From: a virus
Taxonomy: Duplodnaviria > Caudoviricetes
IMG/VR virus record: IMGVR_UViG_3300021411_000013
Span: 1 to 43,354 of that record
Length of the DNA: 43,354 nucleotides
Direction: 5' to 3' (one strand)
The position numbers and the translations under genes are program-made. Positions within the stretch are counted from its first letter, which is position 1; each line of letters opens with the position of its first letter. The notes beneath the pieces are model-generated. The model was given only the letters and a program-made list of their open reading frames with translations, was not told the origin of the DNA and ran no database searches. Positions 1,147 to 41,324 of the stretch are shown piece by piece.

Positions 1147-1575
1147 ATGTGCTCCGCTGATTGCGATCGTTCCGCTGAGGTGAAGGGTTTGTGTCGTCGG
1201 CACTACGAGGAAAAACGACGTCGCGGCCGGGGGGCGCCCGTGCGCTCCTGGGCGGAACTCGGGGAGTGCCGTACGTACAGCGGATATGTATATGTGAAGG
1301 TGGCGGCCGACTACGTTGGGGGCAATAACGGCGGCTGGGTCCGGGAACATCGGCTGGTCATGGAGCGGATGCTAGGAAGGACGCTTCGGCCCGGAGAAAA
1401 CGTTCATCATATGAACGGGAACCGGCTGGACAACCGACCAGAAAACCTGGAACTGTGGGCCATCCAACAGCCTTCCGGACAAAGGGTAAGTGATATTGTC
1501 GCGACCGCTCAACACACTGTCGATGATCACGTGGTGGCAGGATGGCCCGCGTTGTCTGACCGTTTGGCTGTCTGA
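1147..1575 (+). CDS. HNH homing-type endonuclease inserted between terS and terL
   Basis: EHRLVME..LGR.L...ENVHHMNGNRLDNRPENLELW motif; N-terminal C..C...GLC..HY Zn motif; TGATG overlap with terL. Confidence 0.9.
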   Translation: MCSADCDRSAEVKGLCRRHYEEKRRRGRGAPVRSWAELGECRTYSGYVYVKVAADYVGGNNGGWVREHRLVMERMLGRTLRPGENVHHMNGNRLDNRPENLELWAIQQPSGQRVSDIVATAQHTVDDHVVAGWPALSDRLAV

Positions 1576-9842: not shown

Positions 9843-10237
9843 TGCGCACAAAGAGTCTCCTCGACTATCTCCGCGCGCAGCTGCCCGACGTCGACGTGTT
9901 CACGCAGATGCCCACAGCGGCCTGGACGAAACCGCGAATGCTCGTGAGGCGGCTCCCGGGAACCAATACGCGGTCGTCCCTTTCTACTCCCGGTCTCCGC
10001 GTTGTGCGGCAGGGTTTTCTGCTGTCTCTGTGGTCTCTGGACGAGGGTACCGGGGAGGACACCATGGCCGCGCTTGAGCTCGGCTTGTGGAACCTCCCGG
10101 GTGCCAGTTTTACCGGCTTCGGCGTCTCCGACGTTGAAACGGACGGTGCTCAGTACGCGCCGGATGCAGATACTCCCGAGGGCTTCCGCCATCGGCACCT
10201 GCTGAATGTCATCATCACCGGGAGGTCAACCGCATGA
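9842..10237 (+). CDS. Tail terminator protein
   Basis: P.MLVRRLPG motif; position before the major tail gene. Confidence 0.7.
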   Translation: MRTKSLLDYLRAQLPDVDVFTQMPTAAWTKPRMLVRRLPGTNTRSSLSTPGLRVVRQGFLLSLWSLDEGTGEDTMAALELGLWNLPGASFTGFGVSDVETDGAQYAPDADTPEGFRHRHLLNVIITGRSTA

Positions 10238-10728
10238 CGGCCAGCTACGGCCAACGGAAGGCCGAAGACCGTCGCGAGAATTCGATCAGGTGCTTCTCCT
10301 GCCGGGAGTGGAAGACCGACGCCGAATACCAGCTAGTGGGCAAGTATCGAAGGCAGGACTGTAAACCATGCTGGAATACCGCGAAGAGGTCGCGGTACAC
10401 GCCCAATCAGCATCGTAAGCACAGTTTGAAATACAAATTCGGCATCACGGAAGACGACTACACCGAACGACTGCGGGCGCAGAGCGGCGAGTGTGCGATA
10501 TGCGGGGCCACGGACCCCGGGAGCGGCCACGAGTTCTTCTCCGTGGACCACGATCACGTCTGCTGCCCGGGCCGGCGTAGTTGTGGTGCGTGTATTCGAG
10601 GCCTTCTGTGTACCTCGTGCAACACCGGCATCGGCCTTCTCGGGGACGCCCCAATAAGGCTGCGGGATGCCGCAGATTACCTTGATCTAGCGGCTTTGAC
10701 CGCCCCTCGAAAGGAAGGCATCAAATGA
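10234..10728 (+). CDS. Endonuclease VII-family (HNH) free-standing endonuclease
   Basis: LKYKFGIT...Y.....Q.G.CAICG...VDHDH.CC....CG.CIRGLLC..CN.G.G motif. Confidence 0.92.
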   Translation: MTASYGQRKAEDRRENSIRCFSCREWKTDAEYQLVGKYRRQDCKPCWNTAKRSRYTPNQHRKHSLKYKFGITEDDYTERLRAQSGECAICGATDPGSGHEFFSVDHDHVCCPGRRSCGACIRGLLCTSCNTGIGLLGDAPIRLRDAADYLDLAALTAPRKEGIK

Positions 10729-24193: not shown

Positions 24194-24268
24194 ATGCAGA
24201 TCGAACTATCGGAGGCAGCCGCGCGCCTCACGTGGCGCGTGGAGATGGCGGAGTTGGAGGACGAATGA
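24194..24268 (+). CDS. Mini-ORF (24 aa, MQIELSEAAARLTWRVEMAELEDE)
   Basis: GAAAGG RBS; ATGA overlap with the HNH gene. Confidence 0.45.
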   Translation: MQIELSEAAARLTWRVEMAELEDE

Positions 24269-24687
24269 GCCTACCGGACATTGGTCCGTGCGAGCCGTGG
24301 GAAGGACAGATCGATTGGCACGGGTACGGGCGCTTAACACACAACGGAAAGCGGATGAAGGCTACGCATTTTGTCTTAGCGCAAGCTGGACGTGCACTTA
24401 AGCCCGGGGAGTTCGCCTGTCATCGTTGCGACAACACTGAGTGCGTCCGGCTGGGTCACCTTCACGTCGGAAACCAGCACGATAACATGTCCGCGATGGT
24501 GTCTCGGGGTCGTCACTACAAAGCCTTGATCACCCCGGAAGACGCGAGACGGATCTATGCCCTTCAGTTTTCCGATGTTTCAACCCGGACCGTAGCTGAC
24601 TCGTACGGACTGAAACCCTACAACGTCGCCGCAATTTGGCGGGGTCACACCTGGAGGTCGGTAAATGTCTCTCCCAGCCTTGGCTAG
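24265..24687 (+). CDS. HNH homing endonuclease
   Basis: C..W.G.....GYG...CHRCDN..CV..GHL..G...DN..M..RGR plus C-terminal HTH-like I..G.TW. Confidence 0.9.
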   Translation: MSLPDIGPCEPWEGQIDWHGYGRLTHNGKRMKATHFVLAQAGRALKPGEFACHRCDNTECVRLGHLHVGNQHDNMSAMVSRGRHYKALITPEDARRIYALQFSDVSTRTVADSYGLKPYNVAAIWRGHTWRSVNVSPSLG

Positions 24688-25504
24688 ACGAAAGTCAAAT
24701 ACCGGCCGCCAATATGTCCACCCTGTCACCGGCCAAGCGTACCCGTCGGTCACCACGATCACGGGCATGAAGGACAAGCCGGCCCTGATGAACTGGGCGG
24801 TCAACGAAACCGTGGAGTACGTCATCCGAGAATGGGACACCTTGTCCCCGATGACGAAGAAACTAAAGCGGATCCTGCTGAAGGGCGCCCGCTACGAGGC
24901 TCGCGCCCCGGGCACCGACTTCACCCCGTCAAAAGCGGGTGACTTGGTGCACGACCTTGTAGAGTCCTACTGCAATACGGGTGTGCCAACCTTCAGTTCG
25001 TACGCACTGAGCATCTGTGCTGACGCGGACGTCGATCCCGTTGAAGCCATGCGGCAGGTGATGCCTTGGTTCGCTCAATTCCTTGCTTGGGAAAAGCGCT
25101 TCAAGCCGGAGTGGGTGCTCAACGAAGCAACGATCTTCAACCACTCAATCGGTTATGCGGGTACGATGGACTTGCTCTTCAAAATCGGAGACAAGCACCA
25201 CCTGTGCGACGTTAAGAGCGGAAAGGGGGCATATCCGGAAACCGCCTTCCAACTGGAAGCCCTCGCACGCGGCGAAGAGGTCGTGACCCGGGACGGCACG
25301 ATCACACAGCTCCCGAAGATCGACCAGCTCTCAATCCTGCACATCACACCCAAGATGGCTGACTGGATTCAGATTCGGCCGGATCAGCGCGACCGTACGT
25401 GGCAAGGATTCCAGGCTCTGGCTAACATACAAAATTGGGACGTAGAGAGAGCGCATTTGCAGTTCGGAACGATCAGTACAACGGTGTCGGATGTATCGGT
25501 ATGA
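24665..25504 (+). CDS. Cas4/RecB-like PD-(D/E)XK exonuclease
   Basis: YPSVTTI...KPALMNWA, G.LVH, E..I.....GYAGTMD...DVKSGK..YPE..QL.A. Confidence 0.88.
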   Translation: MSLPALARRKSNTGRQYVHPVTGQAYPSVTTITGMKDKPALMNWAVNETVEYVIREWDTLSPMTKKLKRILLKGARYEARAPGTDFTPSKAGDLVHDLVESYCNTGVPTFSSYALSICADADVDPVEAMRQVMPWFAQFLAWEKRFKPEWVLNEATIFNHSIGYAGTMDLLFKIGDKHHLCDVKSGKGAYPETAFQLEALARGEEVVTRDGTITQLPKIDQLSILHITPKMADWIQIRPDQRDRTWQGFQALANIQNWDVERAHLQFGTISTTVSDVSV

Positions 25505-25778
25505 GCAGAGTGTGCGATCAGTGTGGACTGCCTGTCCCCTCCGGTACACGCAGAAAACGCTGTTCAGGTGCGTGCTCGCCTGTGTGTTTCACGTGTGGCG
25601 TAGCATTTGACGGGGATAATAAGGCGGAGATAGGTCATTTGATCCCGCTGTCTCGGGGGGATCTAACAAGAGAAACAACGTCGCGGCGCAGTGCGTAAGG
25701 TGTAATCGGGGCACAGGGGGCCAGCACCGTAAGATCTTTCCAACGGAATGGACCCCAAGGTGGGCTTGCCAAATCTAG
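25501..25778 (+). pseudogene. HNH endonuclease interrupted by a frameshift in a G6 run (25655-25660)
   Basis: Frame 1 gives C..C...GHLIPLSRG; adding one G continues GSNKRNNVAAQCVRCN...TAG, a complete 92-aa HNH. Confidence 0.8.
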
Positions 25779-26337: not shown

Positions 26338-26364
26338 GAAGTCTCTACCACGAACGGAGAGCAC

Positions 26365-26613
26365 ATGAGCAAGGAAGACGACGCCCGCCGCGCTCACGAG
26401 CAGCTGCAGCGTCAGCTGGAAGAGCGACGTCGCCGAGAAGCCGATCGTCAACGTCAAGCGGAGCAGGCTCGCCAGCGGCTGCAGCGTCAACTGGACGAGC
26501 GTCGCCAGCGGGAAGCCAACGAGGCTCGTCGCAGGCAGCACGAGGAGCAGGCCCGCGAAGCTGCCCGGCGTCGCGATGAGATCAAGCGCAACGAACGAAA
26601 GGGTGGCTCGTGA
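26365..26613 (+). CDS. E/R/Q-rich single-alpha-helix protein (82 aa)
   Basis: GGAG RBS; LQRQL(E/D)ERR internal repeat. Confidence 0.7.
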   Translation: MSKEDDARRAHEQLQRQLEERRRREADRQRQAEQARQRLQRQLDERRQREANEARRRQHEEQAREAARRRDEIKRNERKGGS

Positions 26614-27207: not shown

Positions 27208-27497
27208 AAGACTGGAGAGGCACAGAGATCGTCGTAGGCAGTCTCGTCGCGGTCATCGAAAACAACCGCGTGGACGGAGTGGGCGGCACGCACATGGCAT
27301 GCGGTGAAATCGTCCGGCTGGCTGCCAAGCGGCCGATCGTTCGGATCACGGAACGATCGCAAGAGCAGCGGAACTGGCGTGGCTACTTTCCCCCGTCCGA
27401 TACGGTTCCTAGGGCGCTGGCTCGGGAAAAGGTGACGGTCATCGGACACGTCGCGCCCAAGGCGTTCGAGGCTGTCGTGTGGAGCAAGGATGACTAA
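27204..27497 (+). CDS. Hypothetical protein (SH3/KOW-like MKDWRGTEIVVGSLV)
   Basis: AGGAG RBS; common phage D..G.EI.VG..V start. Confidence 0.7.
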   Translation: MKDWRGTEIVVGSLVAVIENNRVDGVGGTHMACGEIVRLAAKRPIVRITERSQEQRNWRGYFPPSDTVPRALAREKVTVIGHVAPKAFEAVVWSKDD

Positions 27498-27828
27498 CTA
27501 CGACATCGGCCGCCTTACGTCTGGCCCGCTGACGGAGGTTCGCACCGTGCTGTCGCGGGCGGAGACTGCTCTCGCGTGGCTTGAGCACGGCACCGGCAAG
27601 GACGCACAGCTGGAGGTCGAGTCGGCCAGGCGCCACGAAGAGCCTTACGGGGACCGTGTCTACGGACATTTTGACAAGATCGGGTATCAGCCGCGCAGGA
27701 TTGTCACGGACAAGCCGGCCGTAACGATCCCGCACCCGGACCTTGAAGAGATGCGGGACGCCCTGCGCACGACGATCAACGTGCTCCGAAAGTGGGAACG
27801 CACCGGAGCGAAGAAGCGGCCACGATGA
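27490..27828 (+). CDS. Hypothetical protein
   Basis: Coupled ORF, GGAG RBS. Confidence 0.65.
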   Translation: MTNYDIGRLTSGPLTEVRTVLSRAETALAWLEHGTGKDAQLEVESARRHEEPYGDRVYGHFDKIGYQPRRIVTDKPAVTIPHPDLEEMRDALRTTINVLRKWERTGAKKRPR

Positions 27829-28178
27829 GCGCACAACGCGCCAAGGGCACGGCGTGGGAGACCGCTGTCACCCGCTACCTGCAGGACGGCGGTCTGTGGG
27901 CCGAACGCAAGGCCATGACGGTGCCCGACGCTGGCGATGTGAACGTCGGACCCGACGTGGTGACGCTGCAGCTCAAGGCGTACAAAGATCTGACTGCGGC
28001 GCTGCGGGAGGGTGTTGAGGGGGCCGCGATTCAGGGACGGGTGGCTGGGACACCCTGGAACGCGGCTGTGCTGAAGAGGGCGAGGAAGGGCGTGGGAGAT
28101 GCGTACGTGGCGATGACGTTGGCGCAGTATCGAGAGCTGTTGTGGATCTTGGTCCAGCATGACAAGGGTGCGGAGTGA
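27825..28178 (+). CDS. Holliday junction resolvase (Hjc-like PD-(D/E)XK)
   Basis: KGTAWE..V..YL...AER.....D.GDV....Q.K...KR..KG...AYV.MTL motif. Confidence 0.85.
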   Translation: MSAQRAKGTAWETAVTRYLQDGGLWAERKAMTVPDAGDVNVGPDVVTLQLKAYKDLTAALREGVEGAAIQGRVAGTPWNAAVLKRARKGVGDAYVAMTLAQYRELLWILVQHDKGAE

Positions 28179-29017
28179 CCCGGGCGGGGGGTCACGAGCG
28201 TCGTTACGGCCGGTGTGAGTGCGGCAGTGTCGCCAGCGGACCGGCCGGGCTGTGCAAGTCGTGCACGTACGGCATTTGTACGCAATGTGGGGGTAAGGCC
28301 AACGGACCGGCGGGGCTGTGCAAGTCGTGCACGTACGGCATTTGTACGCAATGTGGGGGTAAGGCCAACGGACCGGCGGGGCTGTGCAAGTCGTGCACGT
28401 ACGGAAAGTGCACAATCTGTGGAAACAAGGCCCGCTCCCCGACCGGGCTGTGCTTCTGCTGCCGGTACGGCGCCTGCAAGATCTGTGGAAACAAAGCCAA
28501 CGGACCGGCCGGGCTGTGTACCTCGTGCACGTACGGACCTTGCCAGACCTGTAAAGGCAAGGCCAACGGACCGGCGGGGCTGTGCCAGTCGTGCCGGTAC
28601 GCCGGGCTGCGTCCGTGCACCGTACCGGGCTGCTCGAAGCTCAACGGAACTCGGAGGGGAACTGTCTACCGGGACCTGTGCGACGGTCACGCGACGCGCC
28701 TACGTACCCACGGAGACACCTTCCCAGACGTTCCGATCGGTCACAAGATCCCCGAGACCTGGGAGCAGCGTCCCTCAGTCGTCTACGTCGCCTATGATCT
28801 CCTCGGCACGCCGCTCTACATCGGCTCCTCTTTCGGCGACGGAACCCAGCGCTTCGCTTGGCATCGCAAGTTCCAGCCGTGGGCGTCCGAGATAGCGTCC
28901 TTCAAGATCCACTCTGAGCACCCGACTCGTGGCGAGGCGTTCGTGGCGGAGGCCTCGCTCATACAGGAATGGAGAGCCATGTTCAAGCTCTACAACAAGA
29001 TCGGAGCTGCCGTGTGA
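28175..29017 (+). CDS. GIY-YIG endonuclease with six tandem Cys4 zinc-finger-like repeats
   Basis: 6x C-x(1-2)-C-x10-C-x2-C-x-Y-G repeat, then C..PGC...LC..H..R..THGD Zn motif, then VVYVAY...LYIG...RF.WH...W...A..AE..LI...YN. Confidence 0.85.
   Translation: MTRAGGHERRYGRCECGSVASGPAGLCKSCTYGICTQCGGKANGPAGLCKSCTYGICTQCGGKANGPAGLCKSCTYGKCTICGNKARSPTGLCFCCRYGACKICGNKANGPAGLCTSCTYGPCQTCKGKANGPAGLCQSCRYAGLRPCTVPGCSKLNGTRRGTVYRDLCDGHATRLRTHGDTFPDVPIGHKIPETWEQRPSVVYVAYDLLGTPLYIGSSFGDGTQRFAWHRKFQPWASEIASFKIHSEHPTRGEAFVAEASLIQEWRAMFKLYNKIGAAV
28211..28603 (+). repeat. Coding tandem repeat, 66-bp unit, 6 copies (first copy 63 bp)
   Basis: Unit such as ATTTGTACGCAATGTGGGGGTAAGGCCAACGGACCGGCGGGGCTGTGCAAGTCGTGCACGTACGG; copies 2 and 3 encode identical peptides. 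Confidence 0.95.
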
Positions 29018-31311
29018 CTGACATCCTCGACTACGCCCGCCGCTACACTGCGGCGGGTATGGTCGTCCTGCCGGCTATCCCCGGCACGAAGCGTCCAGCA
29101 GCCGCGTGGAAGACCATCCACGCAACCCCGGATTTCTCCGACCCGATGTGGCTGAACGCCGATCGCATCGGAGTGCTCACCGGTCGCGGCCAAGCAGCTC
29201 TGGTTGTCGTAGACCTCGATAAGAGCGACCACGTAGACGGCAACGTAGAATGGCGGAAGCTGCTCAACTCTCTCCAACTGCCCTATCACGCCCCGCAGGT
29301 CACCACACCCTCGGGTGGCGGTCACGCTTACTACCGCCTGCCGCCGGGGGACACGACCCTGGGCAACAGCGTCAAGGTGCTGCCAGGGATCGACATCCGT
29401 AAGGACGGGGGCTACGCGGTTCTGCCCGGCAGCGATGGCTATGCGTTCGCTGCCGGGGTCACCCCCGAGTCCCTAGTCACCACGGCTCCGATGATGTCTC
29501 CGGCCCTCATCGAAGCCCTGTCCCGCAAAACCAGCGTGGCGACCCGAGCCCCGTCTCAACTGGCAGCTTCCATCTACGCACTCCGCCTCATCCGGAACCC
29601 AGCCGCGACGATCGACAAGGCGATCGATGACTACCTTGCCAGCGCGGCCCCTGGAAACTTCAACGATCGCGGCTTGTGGCTGATGTGCCGCGTAGCTGAG
29701 CTGGACGAAGCCCAGCCTGGCATCGCAGAGGCAACGTTCCCCCGTCTCCTGGACACCTTCCGGCAGGCGGGCAGCGTTCTCCCGGCCGGTGAGTACGAGA
29801 GCATGTGGCATCGCGCCAAGGACATGTCCGCCGGTTCCCTGGACATCGCGGGTGCTTGCCAGCTTCTACGCAAAGCCCAGAACCTCAGCTTGCCGGCCCC
29901 GGCCGACCCAATCGATGTGGACGCGATATTGTTTTCTGTCACCGATGCGAACAATGCGGCCGCTCTCCACCGAGTGGTAGACGGGGGCATCGCGTACAGC
30001 CATGGGGCCAGCTGGCGCGTGTACACAGGCCATGGTTGGGTGGACGACCCTGACGCCCGGCGCATCCGCACCCGCTGGTATCAGCTGCACGAACAGGTAG
30101 AGGACACGGTCCGGGCGGAGCTGCAGCTTGAAACCGTGGACACTGCTGCCCTGATGCGCAAGTACAACGCCTCCGCCAAGCTGAAATCAGCAAAGGCTGC
30201 CGACGACATGGTGTCCAAGCTTCGGGACATCCCAGGCGTCTACGTCGACGACGATGCCTGGGACTCCGACCCGTGGAAACTGGCTTTCCTCAATGGGGTG
30301 GTCGACCTTCGGGACGGCTCCCTCGAACCTTGGCACACGGGTCTCCGGTTCACCAAAGTCATCCCGCACGACTACGACCCTGCCGCGAAGTGCCCAGCCT
30401 GGCAGCAGCAGCTGGCGGACACCTTCCTAGATCACCCGGAGGTCACCGAATATATCCGTCGCATGCTGGGCTATTCGATCACGGGGTCTGTCCGGGAGCA
30501 AAAGTTCTGGGTCTTCCATGGAGTCGGGGGGACCGGCAAGTCCAGCTTGATGGAAGTCGTCGGGGGCGTCCTCAAACCGATGTTCCGCAGTATCAACGTG
30601 CAGGCGTTCGTGGCCACCGGGGACAACAACCCTGAGCTTGCTTCGATGCCCGGCATGCGCATCGCTTTCGTGGACGAGGGGGAGCTAAGCGTCGGTCAGC
30701 TGCAGTCCGGCGTCCTGAAAAAGTTCACAGGGTCTAGGGACTTCACCGCGTCCGCAAAGTACAAAAACCCCGTAACCTTCGAGATTACCGCTAAGCTGGT
30801 CATCTCAGCAAACTCCCGACTCACTATCCCAACGTCCGACGATGCTGTGTGGCGTCGTCTCCGCCCTGTCGAGTTCCTGCACAAGGTGCCTGACTCGACC
30901 AAGGATCTCAACCGCGTGGCGAACCTCATCCGCGACGAGGGTCCAGGTATCCTCGCGTGGCTGGTCCGGGCCGCCCAAGACTGGTATGCCACCGGCCTTG
31001 AGGAGCCTCCGATCATCACGGAGTGGCTGGAGCAGTATCAACGGGAGACGGATCCCTTGGACGAGTGGCTAGGGATGGTCACCGCTCCGACCGGAACCCC
31101 CACCCGACTGTGCAGCCCAGCGGGAGCTGTCTACTTACACTACGTGACGTATATGGACACGATGGGGATGGCGCGAGCGGCGTGGGGACGTCCTCGGCTG
31201 ATGAAGGAACTGGACGCGCGGGGCTTCAAGGGCCAGAAAAGTGACGGCCGACGGGTGCTGAATGGGATTCGTGTGACATCTGGTCACGACCCAGATGCTG
31301 TGAGTAGCTGA
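29014..31311 (+). CDS. Bifunctional primase-polymerase / D5 (P4-family) SF3 helicase
   Basis: IGVLTG..LVVVDLD, TPSGGGHAYY, IDIR..GGY (PrimPol); NGVVDL, GVGGTGKS Walker A, FVDE, LKKFTG, AVWRRL. Confidence 0.93.
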   Translation: MTDILDYARRYTAAGMVVLPAIPGTKRPAAAWKTIHATPDFSDPMWLNADRIGVLTGRGQAALVVVDLDKSDHVDGNVEWRKLLNSLQLPYHAPQVTTPSGGGHAYYRLPPGDTTLGNSVKVLPGIDIRKDGGYAVLPGSDGYAFAAGVTPESLVTTAPMMSPALIEALSRKTSVATRAPSQLAASIYALRLIRNPAATIDKAIDDYLASAAPGNFNDRGLWLMCRVAELDEAQPGIAEATFPRLLDTFRQAGSVLPAGEYESMWHRAKDMSAGSLDIAGACQLLRKAQNLSLPAPADPIDVDAILFSVTDANNAAALHRVVDGGIAYSHGASWRVYTGHGWVDDPDARRIRTRWYQLHEQVEDTVRAELQLETVDTAALMRKYNASAKLKSAKAADDMVSKLRDIPGVYVDDDAWDSDPWKLAFLNGVVDLRDGSLEPWHTGLRFTKVIPHDYDPAAKCPAWQQQLADTFLDHPEVTEYIRRMLGYSITGSVREQKFWVFHGVGGTGKSSLMEVVGGVLKPMFRSINVQAFVATGDNNPELASMPGMRIAFVDEGELSVGQLQSGVLKKFTGSRDFTASAKYKNPVTFEITAKLVISANSRLTIPTSDDAVWRRLRPVEFLHKVPDSTKDLNRVANLIRDEGPGILAWLVRAAQDWYATGLEEPPIITEWLEQYQRETDPLDEWLGMVTAPTGTPTRLCSPAGAVYLHYVTYMDTMGMARAAWGRPRLMKELDARGFKGQKSDGRRVLNGIRVTSGHDPDAVSS

Positions 31312-37180: not shown

Positions 37181-37290
37181 TCTCCCGTGACGCTGCGCTC
37201 TTCGATCGCAAGGCGTGGCTCCTACTGGCTGCCATCGTAGCTGTGCCGGCCGCGATCGGTGCGCTGATTGGGTGGGCGTGGCCGCGATGA
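37177..37290 (+). CDS. Small TM protein (37 aa)
   Basis: ATGA coupling; hydrophobic helix. Confidence 0.6.
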   Translation: MISRDAALFDRKAWLLLAAIVAVPAAIGALIGWAWPR

Positions 37291-37793
37291 GCCCGTATCT
37301 CGCCTACGCTCTCATCGGCGCGGGCCTCGTCGTACTCTGGCTCTCCGTGCGCTGGCTCATCGGTCGCGCCCGGAAGTGGTTTCGGGTCACGTACCGCCGG
37401 GCGCCCGGGAAGCCGACGCCTTGGACGGACGAGTCCGATCCTGAGATCGGCTGGACGTATGAGGTCTACCGAAAGGGCCGCGCGCCGGACTACACGGAAA
37501 GCGAGCACCTCCCGGCACGGCGGGCGCAGCTGCTCTACGTCGGCTCCGCCAAGCGTCACCCCTTCGGGCGCCTGGCTGATCACGTCACCAAAGAGTGGTT
37601 CCCCTCGGATGCCTTGATCCGATGTGACAAGCACATTCACTACGCGGCCGCACACGACGCGGAGATCGTCAAAATCCAAGATCTACTACCGTCCGAGAAC
37701 AAGATCAGGTACACTAGTAAGCGAGTCAGCCGACCTGCAGGGGAGCTGACGCCCGTCAGCACTTCGTGGATTCGACTGGAGAGAGAACGATGA
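37287..37793 (+). CDS. Membrane-anchored GIY-YIG-like protein
   Basis: N-terminal TM helix, then GWTYEVY...LLYVG...RLADH...WF...A.DAE...I....P.EN. Confidence 0.65.
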   Translation: MSPYLAYALIGAGLVVLWLSVRWLIGRARKWFRVTYRRAPGKPTPWTDESDPEIGWTYEVYRKGRAPDYTESEHLPARRAQLLYVGSAKRHPFGRLADHVTKEWFPSDALIRCDKHIHYAAAHDAEIVKIQDLLPSENKIRYTSKRVSRPAGELTPVSTSWIRLERER

Positions 37794-39884: not shown

Positions 39885-39957
39885 CTCTGACTCCGTTTTG
39901 TAGTTGTCAATGTGTCTAAGACCATTCAAGCACGCCGGAGAGGCGGTGTCAAGTCCC

Positions 39958-40206
39958 ATGGGCAAGCCAATGCTGCGCAAAGTCAAGGGCACGATGCGCG
40001 GACGCATGCGCCACCGCCCAACCATGAAGCAGCGCCTTCGCCGTCGCCTCACCTTTCGATCCCCGGCTGCCCGGTTCGAGAGCTTCTTCAACTCCCTGAT
40101 GATCACGCAGCTCATGGGCGTCCGCATCAAGAAGCTCCCCGCCAAGATCGGCAGCCGCCGCTGGCAACGCGAGCAGCGCAGAGACAACAAGGGCAGGTTC
40201 GCGTGA
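39958..40206 (+). CDS. Very basic Arg/Lys-rich protein ending RDNKGRFA
   Basis: GTGA coupling to next gene; RDxxGRF motif; start codon uncertain. Confidence 0.6.
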   Translation: MGKPMLRKVKGTMRGRMRHRPTMKQRLRRRLTFRSPAARFESFFNSLMITQLMGVRIKKLPAKIGSRRWQREQRRDNKGRFA

Positions 40207-41324
40207 GCGTCACAGTCCCAACGTCCGACGAGCTCACCGTTGCCGTGCAGCGCATCGACGCATTGGAGAGTACGGATGCCGTTCCCGGACCACAAGGAGC
40301 TCCCGGGCCAGCTGGCCCTATGGGACCAGCCGGAGGATCCGTACCAGGACTTCCGACAGCGTTGGATAGCTACCTCGGAAGCGACGATCAGCGACTTGCA
40401 GCCTTCCTTGCCGCCTTCGACGCGGCACCGAGCGGAGCTAAACCTGTCCTAGCGCTCGCGGCACGGTCTCACGTCTTGACGGGCCAGTACAACCTTCGCA
40501 ACGGCCTGCAGATCCTCGGCCCCGGCGCAGAGACGGAGTTCGGTAACCACTGCACGGTGGCTGTAAGGCACGCAGCTGGCCTCTTCATCGTCCCGGCGGG
40601 CAACGTCCGCGACGTCGTCATTCAGGGCGTGTGCTTCGTTGGCAACGGCAGCAACGCCTTCGTGCAGGATAGTCTGCCGCTGGGCACCGGCCCGCAGATG
40701 CAGGACGTTCGTATCCTCGACTGCGGTTTCAAGTCCTTCCGCTCGATCATGAAGGCGACGCACCTGCGCTGCACGATCGACCGCACCTACGTCAACGGCG
40801 GGACCGGCACCCAGTTCGCGCTGGCAGGCTCCGATAACCAGTACTGGCCCACAGCAGGCTCGTACATGAGCTCGACCACGATGCCTGCGGGGTCCTTCTA
40901 CCTGGACTTCGTGCACATGTCACAGACGATCGTGGGGCCGCTCTACCTCACCACGGAGACGGTGGGCGTACGCGTGCAGGCCAGCTACGGTCAGCTGCGT
41001 TTCGAGGGCACGCGGTTGGACGGCACGAACCGCCCGGCAACCAGGGCTTGCCAGGCGGCGGGGCTGCTCATCACGGGCGGCGTGGGCGTCACCCTGCGGG
41101 ACGTGTGGACCTTCAACAACGCCGCAGGCGCCGGTCGCGGCCAGATTGAGATCACGGGAGGCTCCGGCCACCGCGTTCTGAATCTCGCCACCGCGCACAG
41201 CTTCGGGGGCTTCGTGGCGAGCACGCCAGCGACCAAGCCAGCCGTCTACTCCACCGTCCCGATCAAGGCCACCGAGGTGTTCAGCGATGGGATTCAGGGC
41301 ACTGCTGTCGTTGCTCCGGCGTAG
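40203..41324 (+). CDS. Collagen-linker plus right-handed beta-helix protein (tailspike/depolymerase-like)
   Basis: GPQGAPGPAGPMGPAG then pectate-lyase-like rungs (LQILGPG, DVVIQGVCFVG, DVRILDCGF, GVTLRDV). Confidence 0.75.
   Translation: MSVTVPTSDELTVAVQRIDALESTDAVPGPQGAPGPAGPMGPAGGSVPGLPTALDSYLGSDDQRLAAFLAAFDAAPSGAKPVLALAARSHVLTGQYNLRNGLQILGPGAETEFGNHCTVAVRHAAGLFIVPAGNVRDVVIQGVCFVGNGSNAFVQDSLPLGTGPQMQDVRILDCGFKSFRSIMKATHLRCTIDRTYVNGGTGTQFALAGSDNQYWPTAGSYMSSTTMPAGSFYLDFVHMSQTIVGPLYLTTETVGVRVQASYGQLRFEGTRLDGTNRPATRACQAAGLLITGGVGVTLRDVWTFNNAAGAGRGQIEITGGSGHRVLNLATAHSFGGFVASTPATKPAVYSTVPIKATEVFSDGIQGTAVVAPA

Follow-up and report, generated by a model that had tools for sequence, protein, structure and literature searches.

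A recently expanding array of small Cys4 units on a predicted C-terminal GIY-YIG nuclease of a probable actinobacterial phage

Nucleases of the GIY-YIG superfamily share the GIY and YIG motifs, a central Arg and a C-terminal Glu, with an Asn in the lineage of UvrC and the homing endonucleases (PMC1564403), and the catalytic residues of I-TevI are R27 and E75 (PMC12774661). Zinc modules accompany such nucleases in the T5orf172 subfamily, where 200 of 229 genes carry CapR, DUF723 or DUF4397 zinc fingers, many of them in multiple copies; these genes are described as 'beads on a string' which undergo domain swapping, and the in-frame loss of a 228-bp repeat is reported for gp174 (PMC10448857). An N-terminal zinc array joined to a C-terminal nuclease of a GIY-YIG subfamily, with gain and loss of repeats, is already described in that source (PMC10448857). 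Seven free-standing endonucleases of phage T4 are promoterless, several of them overlapping upstream genes (PMC2988022), and in the natural homing enzyme I-Bth0305I (EDxHD) repeated N-terminal motifs, which bind largely non-specifically, precede a C-terminal nuclease (PMC3239194).

The DNA analysed here (the window) comprises one complete IMG/VR virus record, 43,354 bases long and with 63% GC. Profile searches with Pfam and PHROG identified genes for terminase, portal, capsid, tail, tape measure and exonuclease, along with a RusA-like resolvase, a Prim-Pol/D5 primase, a polymerase A and a sigma factor. The runs that contain this phage are soil metagenomes. The best matches of its primase in GenBank phages lie below 60% identity (approximately 25-31% in the best 15), and 13 of the 15 best matches among cultured phages are from Streptomyces or Mycobacterium phages, pointing to a probable actinobacterial host. 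Between the resolvase and primase genes lies a gene for a putative nuclease with a zinc array (Table 1), which a first-pass annotation of the sequence had described as coupled to both neighbours; both junctions are indeed GTGA start/stop overlaps (rusA stop at 28176-28178, primase GTG at 29014), and the overlap with the primase is also kept in the related locus L003. The GC3 of the nuclease gene (0.78) is like that of the core genes, the two HNH genes of the phage having values of 0.63-0.64, which suggests that the gene has long been resident in the phage genome. Beside core genes the window phage has no fewer than four further free-standing nucleases, as genes or remnants, and two of its other nuclease genes differ in L003, where such genes are variously present, absent or decayed.

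Table 1. Positions of the nuclease gene, its parts and its neighbours in the window
Feature	Coordinates	Strand	Remarks
Upstream RusA-like Holliday junction resolvase	27825..28178	+	phrog_244, E 7.4e-14; stop overlaps start of nuclease gene
Cys4-array/GIY-YIG nuclease gene (predicted)	28175..29017	+	280 aa, GTG start; array, Cys3His module, linker, C-terminal GIY-YIG
Six-unit Cys4 array, aa 13-143	28211..28603	+	Spacing C-x2-C-x10-C-x2-C; Tandem Repeats Finder
Unit starts in array	28211, 28274, 28340, 28406, 28472, 28538	+	Unit 1 is C-x-C
Recent 66-bp duplication, 92-bp exact period-66 run	28247..28404	+	28247-28338 = 28313-28404
Cys3His zinc module (putative) and conserved linker	28616..28744	+	C148, C153, C169, H172
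Minimal GIY-YIG domain, aa 199-276	28769..29002	+	Y204, Y215-I-G217, R226, H230, E259, N274
Downstream Prim-Pol/D5-type primase-helicase	29014..31311	+	PF09250, PF08706, PF19263

The C-terminal domain carries the residues that define the GIY-YIG superfamily: V203-Y204, Y215, G217, R226, H230, E259 and N274 are invariant in all six aligned relatives, with I216 replaced by Val in one. The annotation's C-terminal GIY-YIG domain with Y, YIG, R, H, E and N positions is thus borne out in every motif residue, and the predicted fold matches moderately well. The PHROG family phrog_16880 ('endonuclease') was matched over aa 198-271 of the window protein (E 3.4e-7), with E 1.9e-8 in a further comparison, while PF01541 was matched in three of the six members at E<=10 (best 2.1e-4), the match to the window's own domain being weak and below the cut-off (E 0.077). 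A PDB sequence search returned nothing below E 0.01. In the AlphaFold model of the full protein the mean pLDDT is 50, with about 60 in the GIY-YIG domain, and a fold search among 48,161 chains gave PD-T4-3 (9u75, VIA Z 6.7), UvrC (1ycz, Z 6.5, rmsd 2.7 over 69 aligned residues), a plant Grx N-domain (Z 5.9), I-TevI (1ln0, Z 5.5) and T4 EndoII (Z 4.0). The top five of the 48,161 chains are of GIY-YIG type, as their titles state except for PD-T4-3 and the plant Grx N-domain, which are structures of the same type. Foldseek likewise puts the GIY-YIG group first, with none at E 0.001. With Z below 8 and a model near pLDDT 60, the fold and profile match to GIY-YIG is moderate. The dN/dS of the nuclease domain against L003 is 0.215 (rusA 0.09, primase 0.03-0.05), which points to purifying selection, and the nuclease is probably active.

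At the N-terminus, the six tandem units listed by the annotation are present with the sequences it gave. Its description of them as 22-aa Cys4 units holds for units 2-6, while unit 1 comprises 21 aa. Tandem Repeats Finder reports the array with a period of 66, 5.6 copies and a score of 348, the other four of its five rows in the window scoring 59-61. The Pro and Tyr positions, which had been called fixed, are so within the window, but across five proteins they are present in 21 of 24 units. The four Cys are invariant in 24 of 24 units from these proteins, and on this ground each unit is predicted to bind one zinc. The array is strongly basic, with 15 K/R against one D/E in the 131 aa of the window (15 against 1-2 when L003 is counted). 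A model of three units reached pLDDT 76 in one of five models, the others reaching 41-44, and in the best of these columns 17-19 form a short helical turn, each unit having no more helix than this. The fold search with the three-unit model gave at best VIA Z 2.1, to LIM domains, and Foldseek gave no match at E<=0.001, a result which does not by itself show a new fold. The unit is without an above-threshold family match in Pfam, PHROGs and NCBIfam: DZR_2 (best E 0.0061, four of six members at E<=10) and Zn_ribbon_LapB (best E 0.0047) matched below their cut-offs, the window array scores 8 bits against zinc-ribbon family cut-offs of 26-27, and among six members Zf_WRKY19 matched P0004 only (E 0.45). 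No description of this 22-aa unit was found in a word search of the accessible literature, which cannot catch an unnamed motif. The novelty of the gene would therefore lie in this small Cys4 unit, as judged against the three family libraries.

The array is followed by the zinc motif of Cys and His residues that the annotation had placed behind the repeats, here recognised as a Cys3His module. Modules of this type recur, in repeated copies, among numerous phage HNH and GIY-YIG proteins; the type is that of the phage HNH endonucleases of PHROG 5351, 1271 and 3593 (Zf_WRKY19 PF24906-like). A deep search of 1.84 billion representatives, one per 50% cluster, gave 232 matches at E<=0.001; among the best 150 of these, which were examined, a regular expression recovered at least 22 proteins with two or more Cys3His modules before an HNH motif and at least four with such modules before a C-terminal GIY-YIG domain, and Pfam on 30 hand-picked matches agrees. 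As the module is so common, a C-terminal GIY-YIG domain behind zinc modules is not peculiar to the window gene. The module of L003 differs from that of the window and resembles that of the related locus L004. In contrast to the Cys3His module, the Cys4 unit is shorter, ends in Cys rather than His, lacks the helix and the spacer and has no PF24906 match. Intermediate units ending in His occur in the deep-search proteins P0009, P0011 and P0015, and a profile of 37 Cys4 units against 209 His modules scores 3.5 bits, compared to 1.9 +/- 0.2 for shuffles in which C and H were held fixed. From this weak profile signal, the Cys4 unit may have descended from the Cys3His module.

Relatives of the array protein differ in unit number. 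Three units are present in P0003, four each in P0002 and P0006 (= L004) and seven in L003, P0003 belonging to the same 90% cluster as P0006. The search for homologues varying in repeat number that the annotation had proposed was thus run with a positive outcome: 3, 4, 5, 6 and 7 units were found, refuting a fixed number. The deep search added P0011 (three units by pattern, four by eye, with the same nuclease), P0015 (six units of 25-27 aa) and the fragment P0012, and recovered P0009 (four full 21-aa units), which had been found before, bringing the range of unit length to between 21 and about 27 aa. In P0009 and P0015 the array ends in a His-type unit, which is followed by a C-terminal region unlike the window nuclease (z 1.6 and -0.3). 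These regions resemble T5orf172 by eye only; no Pfam or PHROG match and no significant pairwise similarity was found, and both were left unassigned. P0004 and P0008, on the other hand, share the linker and nuclease of the window protein but bear zinc modules of HNH/EndoVII type in front of them, with no Cys4 array, and in a 48-row tree of the nuclease domain, built from few columns, they form one clade (100/99) with the six array proteins. Modules have been exchanged on one nuclease clade, and the array repeat also occurs on unrelated C-terminal domains. The modular protein envisaged in the annotation is supported in that unit number varies from 3 to 7 and modules are swapped on one clade; the TALE/ZFN-like code that went with it is not. 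Many deep-search hits, including P0016, P0017, P0047, P0048 and P0064, were set aside as compositional false positives which match the repeat part without its cysteines, and 31 of the 150 examined matches have neither module nor nuclease motif. Relatives with their gene surroundings were rare, and no confirmed match was found in viral contigs, GTDB genomes or GenBank phages. A DNA pattern for the unit gave no viral match and six in GTDB, all six being chance matches in non-coding frames, and the ESM Atlas offered only leads under 0.9.

As in the T5orf172/CapR genes gp174 and gp165 of ICP1, zinc modules stand at one end of the window protein and a nuclease of the GIY-YIG kind at the other; repeat loss by recombination, swapping and a free-standing position beside replisome genes are further points of likeness (PMC10448857). 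The trait of zinc modules that vary in number (3-7) and are swapped recurs in the array family. The finger of the T5orf172/CapR proteins is, however, of the form CxxC...CxC and the gp174 deletion spans 76 codons (PMC10448857), whereas the window unit has 22 aa and the spacing C-x2-C-x10-C-x2-C. None of the six members has a T5orf172 or MUG113 domain in Pfam at E<=10, PF01541 being matched instead, and unlike T5orf172 the window nuclease bears the C-terminal Asn motif; zinc fingers of the CapR, DUF723 or DUF4397 type likewise have no Pfam match in any of the six, and differ in spacing and length. The window gene would work like the T5orf172/CapR genes, but by profile tests it is not a member of their family. 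With I-TevI and the T4 Seg family it shares the catalytic fold and motif residues, the seg genes also being free-standing and overlapping their neighbours (PMC2988022, PMC1564403, PMC12774661). The order of domains in the window protein is the reverse, with the nuclease C-terminal, and zinc modules take the place of the NUMOD/HTH elements. I-Bth0305I resembles it in having repeated N-terminal DNA-binding motifs (binding being predicted for the window protein) and a C-terminal nuclease, but these are NUMOD2 motifs and a Vsr-like nuclease rather than zinc units and GIY-YIG (PMC3239194).

Units 2 and 3, which the annotation regarded as near-identical 66-bp copies and a sign of recent expansion, differ at one of 66 nucleotides and span the 92-bp exact run of Table 1, in agreement with that view. 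Three other records of the same protein (P0001, P0005 and L002) have five units, the contig of P0001 being exactly 66 bp shorter than the window and L002 differing from it by one substitution outside the array over approximately 16.7 kb. In the light of these records it was a real possibility that the sixth unit is an assembly artefact in an otherwise fixed array. The six-unit form is set apart by only four 31-mers (starts 28309-28312); a 34-nt contig consisting of precisely these k-mers was found in four of four runs at 0.49-1.72 times the flank depth; as the runs represent two samples from two studies, two of them possibly the source of the window, this is read-level support and not independent sampling. 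Together with the relatives that have 3, 4, 4 and 7 units, these k-mers largely refute the artefact, which is considered extremely improbable, and the duplication stands as more than a product of assembly. The five-unit form has no 31-mer of its own, so that true five-unit molecules are indistinguishable from assembler collapse. The pooled depth of the 92-mer is 1.41 times that of the flanks (1.11-2.67 per run), the expected value being 1 or 2, and rough Poisson calculations give P 0.002 against all-six and 0.007 against all-five. Lying between 1 and 2, this depth suggests that the phage population is a mixture of five- and six-unit alleles, as a rough estimate with one run at 2.67. In the five-unit allele, 26 bp are still repeated exactly and directly 66 bp apart, a likely substrate for duplication or deletion by slippage or recombination.

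Tandem arrays N-terminal to the nuclease are also the design of TALEs and of engineered ZFNs and TALENs, TALE repeats being near-identical, with hypervariability focused on one residue pair. The window protein shares this order of parts with TALEs and TALENs, and the annotation had considered it a natural nuclease of the ZFN/TALEN kind whose specificity could change by shuffling of repeats. On a programmable reading, residues in fixed variable columns (such as 10, 17, 18 and 20) would let each 22-aa unit recognise one base or a few, and changes of units would retarget the enzyme as in TALENs or ZFNs. In favour of such programmability are the rigid scaffold, in which seven columns (the four Cys, Ala, Gly and Leu) never vary across the 24 units of five proteins, with variable residues between them, the short helical turn at columns 17-19 in the best three-unit model, and the heterogeneous arrays of the window and P0011. 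Variation is, however, dispersed over eight of 22 columns with more than 1.9 bits (1, 3, 4, 7, 10, 13, 17 and 20; 24 units), and no single hypervariable pair of the TALE type was found among these units. Eight columns were picked for their variability (1, 3, 4, 7, 10, 13, 17 and 18), and for the 14 full units with DNA their pN/pS values were 0.505/0.482 (window), 0.249/0.288 (L003) and 0.411/0.439 (L004), with pN of 0-0.06 at the remaining, conserved columns. This choice of columns favours a high pN, and yet replacement changes are not in excess, which argues against a TALE-like code. The sole hint towards one is column 10, where pN is 0.42 and pS 0.01, with few synonymous sites and non-independent pairs. 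All six full units of L003 and all three of L004 have their nearest unit in their own gene, the six of L003 being near-copies, and adjacent units are near-identical in P0002 and P0009; in the window this holds for two of five units, with one tie and two nearer to units of L003. That arrays expand and homogenise independently fits an element of affinity or reach better than a stored address, and homogenised arrays could encode repetitive targets only. Unit length also varies between 21 and about 27 aa among relatives. The ZFN/TALEN-like code thus finds little favour, its variation being spread, about neutral and set in homogenised arrays, and a programmable nuclease is regarded as improbable. 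The same doubt attaches to a bolder proposal, in which the Cys4 unit of 21-27 aa would be a minimal and so far undescribed zinc repeat for DNA reading, set by phages on at least three different C-terminal domains. Each unit would have a base preference of its own via a few fixed positions, and the 66-bp slippage events, which apparently segregate in one phage population, would retarget a monomeric nuclease, making it a small programmable array of natural origin.

Homing cannot be inferred from sequence alone, as PMC10448857 warns in its treatment of the T5orf172 genes. The nuclease domain of L004 is 74% identical to that of the window (58/78) versus 39% for the nearby Prim-Pol (54/137), an extra ORF lies between the nuclease gene and Prim-Pol, and the upstream gene is not RusA; the gene is therefore found in two different neighbourhoods, and in this one case appears to be laterally mobile. 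In the window it adjoins essential genes, lying between rusA and the primase. Against L003, segments of 150 bp show 67-77% identity in the array and gene ends and 90% in the nuclease core, with 90-93% in rusA and 83-97% in the primase. The setting of the gene is like that of a homing endonuclease, and the resolvase and primase, which the annotation took for the likely homing targets, would be candidate targets. The sister phages seen, two lineages at this site, all keep the nuclease gene between rusA and the primase. The search gave no empty allele: the gene is kept at the site in L002, L003 and contigs from runs X5 and X6, and X7 provides short pieces. No contig in X5-X7 joins rusA directly to the primase, the region being covered in pieces such that missing joins prove little, and no other close relative was found in viral contigs or GenBank phages. 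Sixteen distant Prim-Pol loci were discarded as too remote to serve as empty alleles. Three distant Prim-Pol loci (L019-L021) have an unrelated gene with an N-terminal GIY-YIG domain two genes upstream of the primase. A co-conversion tract, considered for the low dS of the primase 5' end (0.22 against 0.44-0.46), was set aside on account of the equally low value of the dNMP kinase gene (0.19).

The explanation favoured here, and considered fairly probable, is that the gene encodes a free-standing homing-type endonuclease of a probable actinobacterial phage. This reading is adopted because the motif residues are invariant in six of six relatives with a dN/dS of 0.215, because the best fold matches are of GIY-YIG type, because L004 places the gene in a different neighbourhood, because identity to L003 is lower over the array and gene ends than in the nuclease core and rusA, because one nuclease clade bears different zinc modules and the repeat also precedes other C-terminal regions, because the phage has four or more further nucleases of the free-standing kind (genes or remnants), two differing in L003, and because T4 free-standing endonucleases share its gene overlap and the T5orf172 genes its design and repeat dynamics. 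The nuclease gene would be translated by coupling within the replication operon, and its product would grip DNA through the small predicted zinc modules, a basic chain resembling beads on a string, the GIY-YIG domain cutting beside the bound stretch. In a mixed infection the nuclease would cut the allele of a related phage close to resolvase and primase, and the gene would be copied into the cut phage when the break is repaired from the carrier genome. Each unit would probably add affinity, reach and at most a loose sequence preference rather than reading single bases; unit number would change by slippage or recombination between identical stretches of 26-36 bp inside the array, and whole modules would be swapped with other phage nucleases. 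Against homing stand the absence of an empty allele from the search, the core-like GC3, the weak Pfam match, the fold Z below 8 and the mean pLDDT of 50.

Some of the same observations would suit a domesticated nuclease, of homing descent but now of use to the phage: it might attack rival phages or satellites, or act with RusA and the primase on replication or recombination intermediates, and the array would tether DNA in a largely non-specific manner while its length drifts. The same site in both phage lineages, with primase coupling in each, the ameliorated GC3 and the dN/dS of 0.215 agree with this, and some T5orf172 genes (Odn, CapR) have been domesticated according to PMC10448857. The dN/dS is, however, 2-7 times the values of rusA and the primase (0.03-0.09), the neighbourhood in L004 is different and just two lineages are sampled at the site, and domestication is thought rather unlikely. 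The array may, alternatively, not bind DNA but act as a spacer, a protein-interaction surface or a redox or zinc sensor regulating the nuclease, with the Cys3His module alone binding DNA. In the models the related module has a long helix after its His, which the units lack, and I-TevI's zinc finger is described as regulatory, setting the cleavage distance, and not as a binding domain (PMC2988022, PMC10448857). An array at the N-terminus does not stand between a binding module and the nuclease and so cannot be a ruler, it is strongly basic in both the window and L003, and on the one clade of nucleases it stands in place of other zinc modules that putatively bind DNA; a non-binding array is hence held to be highly improbable.

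The homing-type reading thus retained, the locus presents a real array of a small uncatalogued Cys4 unit, recently expanding, on a probably active GIY-YIG nuclease, and the known parts of phage homing-type nucleases gain a very small zinc repeat with no match in the family libraries. Were the units to have individual base preferences, engineered DNA binding could draw on a compact 22-aa scaffold, although the sequence evidence leans against this. The relatives form a natural series of 3, 4, 5, 6 and 7 units on nuclease domains that are 74-100% identical, and this series would test the prediction made in PMC10448857 that gain and loss of zinc modules alters binding and cutting.

The free-standing nuclease genes around the exonuclease gene differ between the window and its sister phage, L003 (coordinates are collected in the table). 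The HNH gene located 5' of the exonuclease is missing in L003, where an unrelated ORF takes its place, and this represents a clear case of presence/absence. A short remnant in the window has as its L003 counterpart an intact HNH gene, positioned 3' of the exonuclease, and is a homing-type gene in decay. The two phages also differ in the ORF preceding rusA, the middle segment of which has been swapped (windows of 61-69% identity), while both ends are conserved.

Nuclease genes and other ORFs of the window and of related or comparable loci.
Locus	Coordinates	Strand	Feature
Window	1147-1575	+	Free-standing HNH nuclease, between terminase genes
Window	10234-10728	+	Free-standing endonuclease VII, flanked by the genes for the tail terminator and the major tail protein
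Window	24268-24687	+	HNH gene
Window	25501-25698	+	Remnant, 65 aa
Window	26362-26613	+	Small low-complexity ORF, R/Q/E-rich
Window	27490-27828		ORF 5' of rusA
Window	37290-37793	+	Divergent second GIY-YIG gene (phrog_16880, E 0.0014)
Window	39912-41324	+	ORF, 470 aa
L003	3974-4228		Unrelated ORF, 84 aa
L003	5045-5584		Intact HNH gene, 179 aa
L003	7283-7638		ORF compared with window 27490-27828
L004	1208-1636		ORF, 142 aa (phrog_34607, E 0.0017)
L020	2164-2886		GIY-YIG gene

The HNH nuclease encoded between the terminase genes carries an N-terminal Cys3His module resembling that behind the window array. Arrays of this module are also found in proteins P0021-P0023, P0028 and P0043, which either have no nuclease or carry a sigma-70 region 4 HTH. 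The plant-named Pfam family Zf_WRKY19 was matched at E<=0.1 in 17 of the 30 proteins scanned, five of these matches exceeding its cut-off. The second GIY-YIG gene of the window is followed directly 3' by a sigma-factor gene. In its product a 19-aa N-terminal segment is hydrophobic (mean hydropathy 1.89), and the protein is possibly membrane-anchored. Among the other ORFs, the 470-aa one includes a short collagen-like stretch, appears repeat-rich and beta-helix-like by eye, shows a weak match to the tail family phrog_819 and lies distant from the window tail genes, while the low-complexity ORF, with an internal repeat at 75-bp spacing, is kept in L003.

Nucleases likewise occur near primase genes in other phages. 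In an unrelated phage (loci L019-L021), a GIY-YIG gene of a broad subfamily shared with that of the window lies close to the primase and a gene that is RuvC-like by eye; its GIY-YIG domain is N-terminal, whereas that of the window array nuclease is C-terminal. In L004, an ORF with an N-terminal zinc motif, T5orf172-like by eye, is flanked by the array nuclease on one side and Prim-Pol on the other, a tandem pair of nucleases at a single site.
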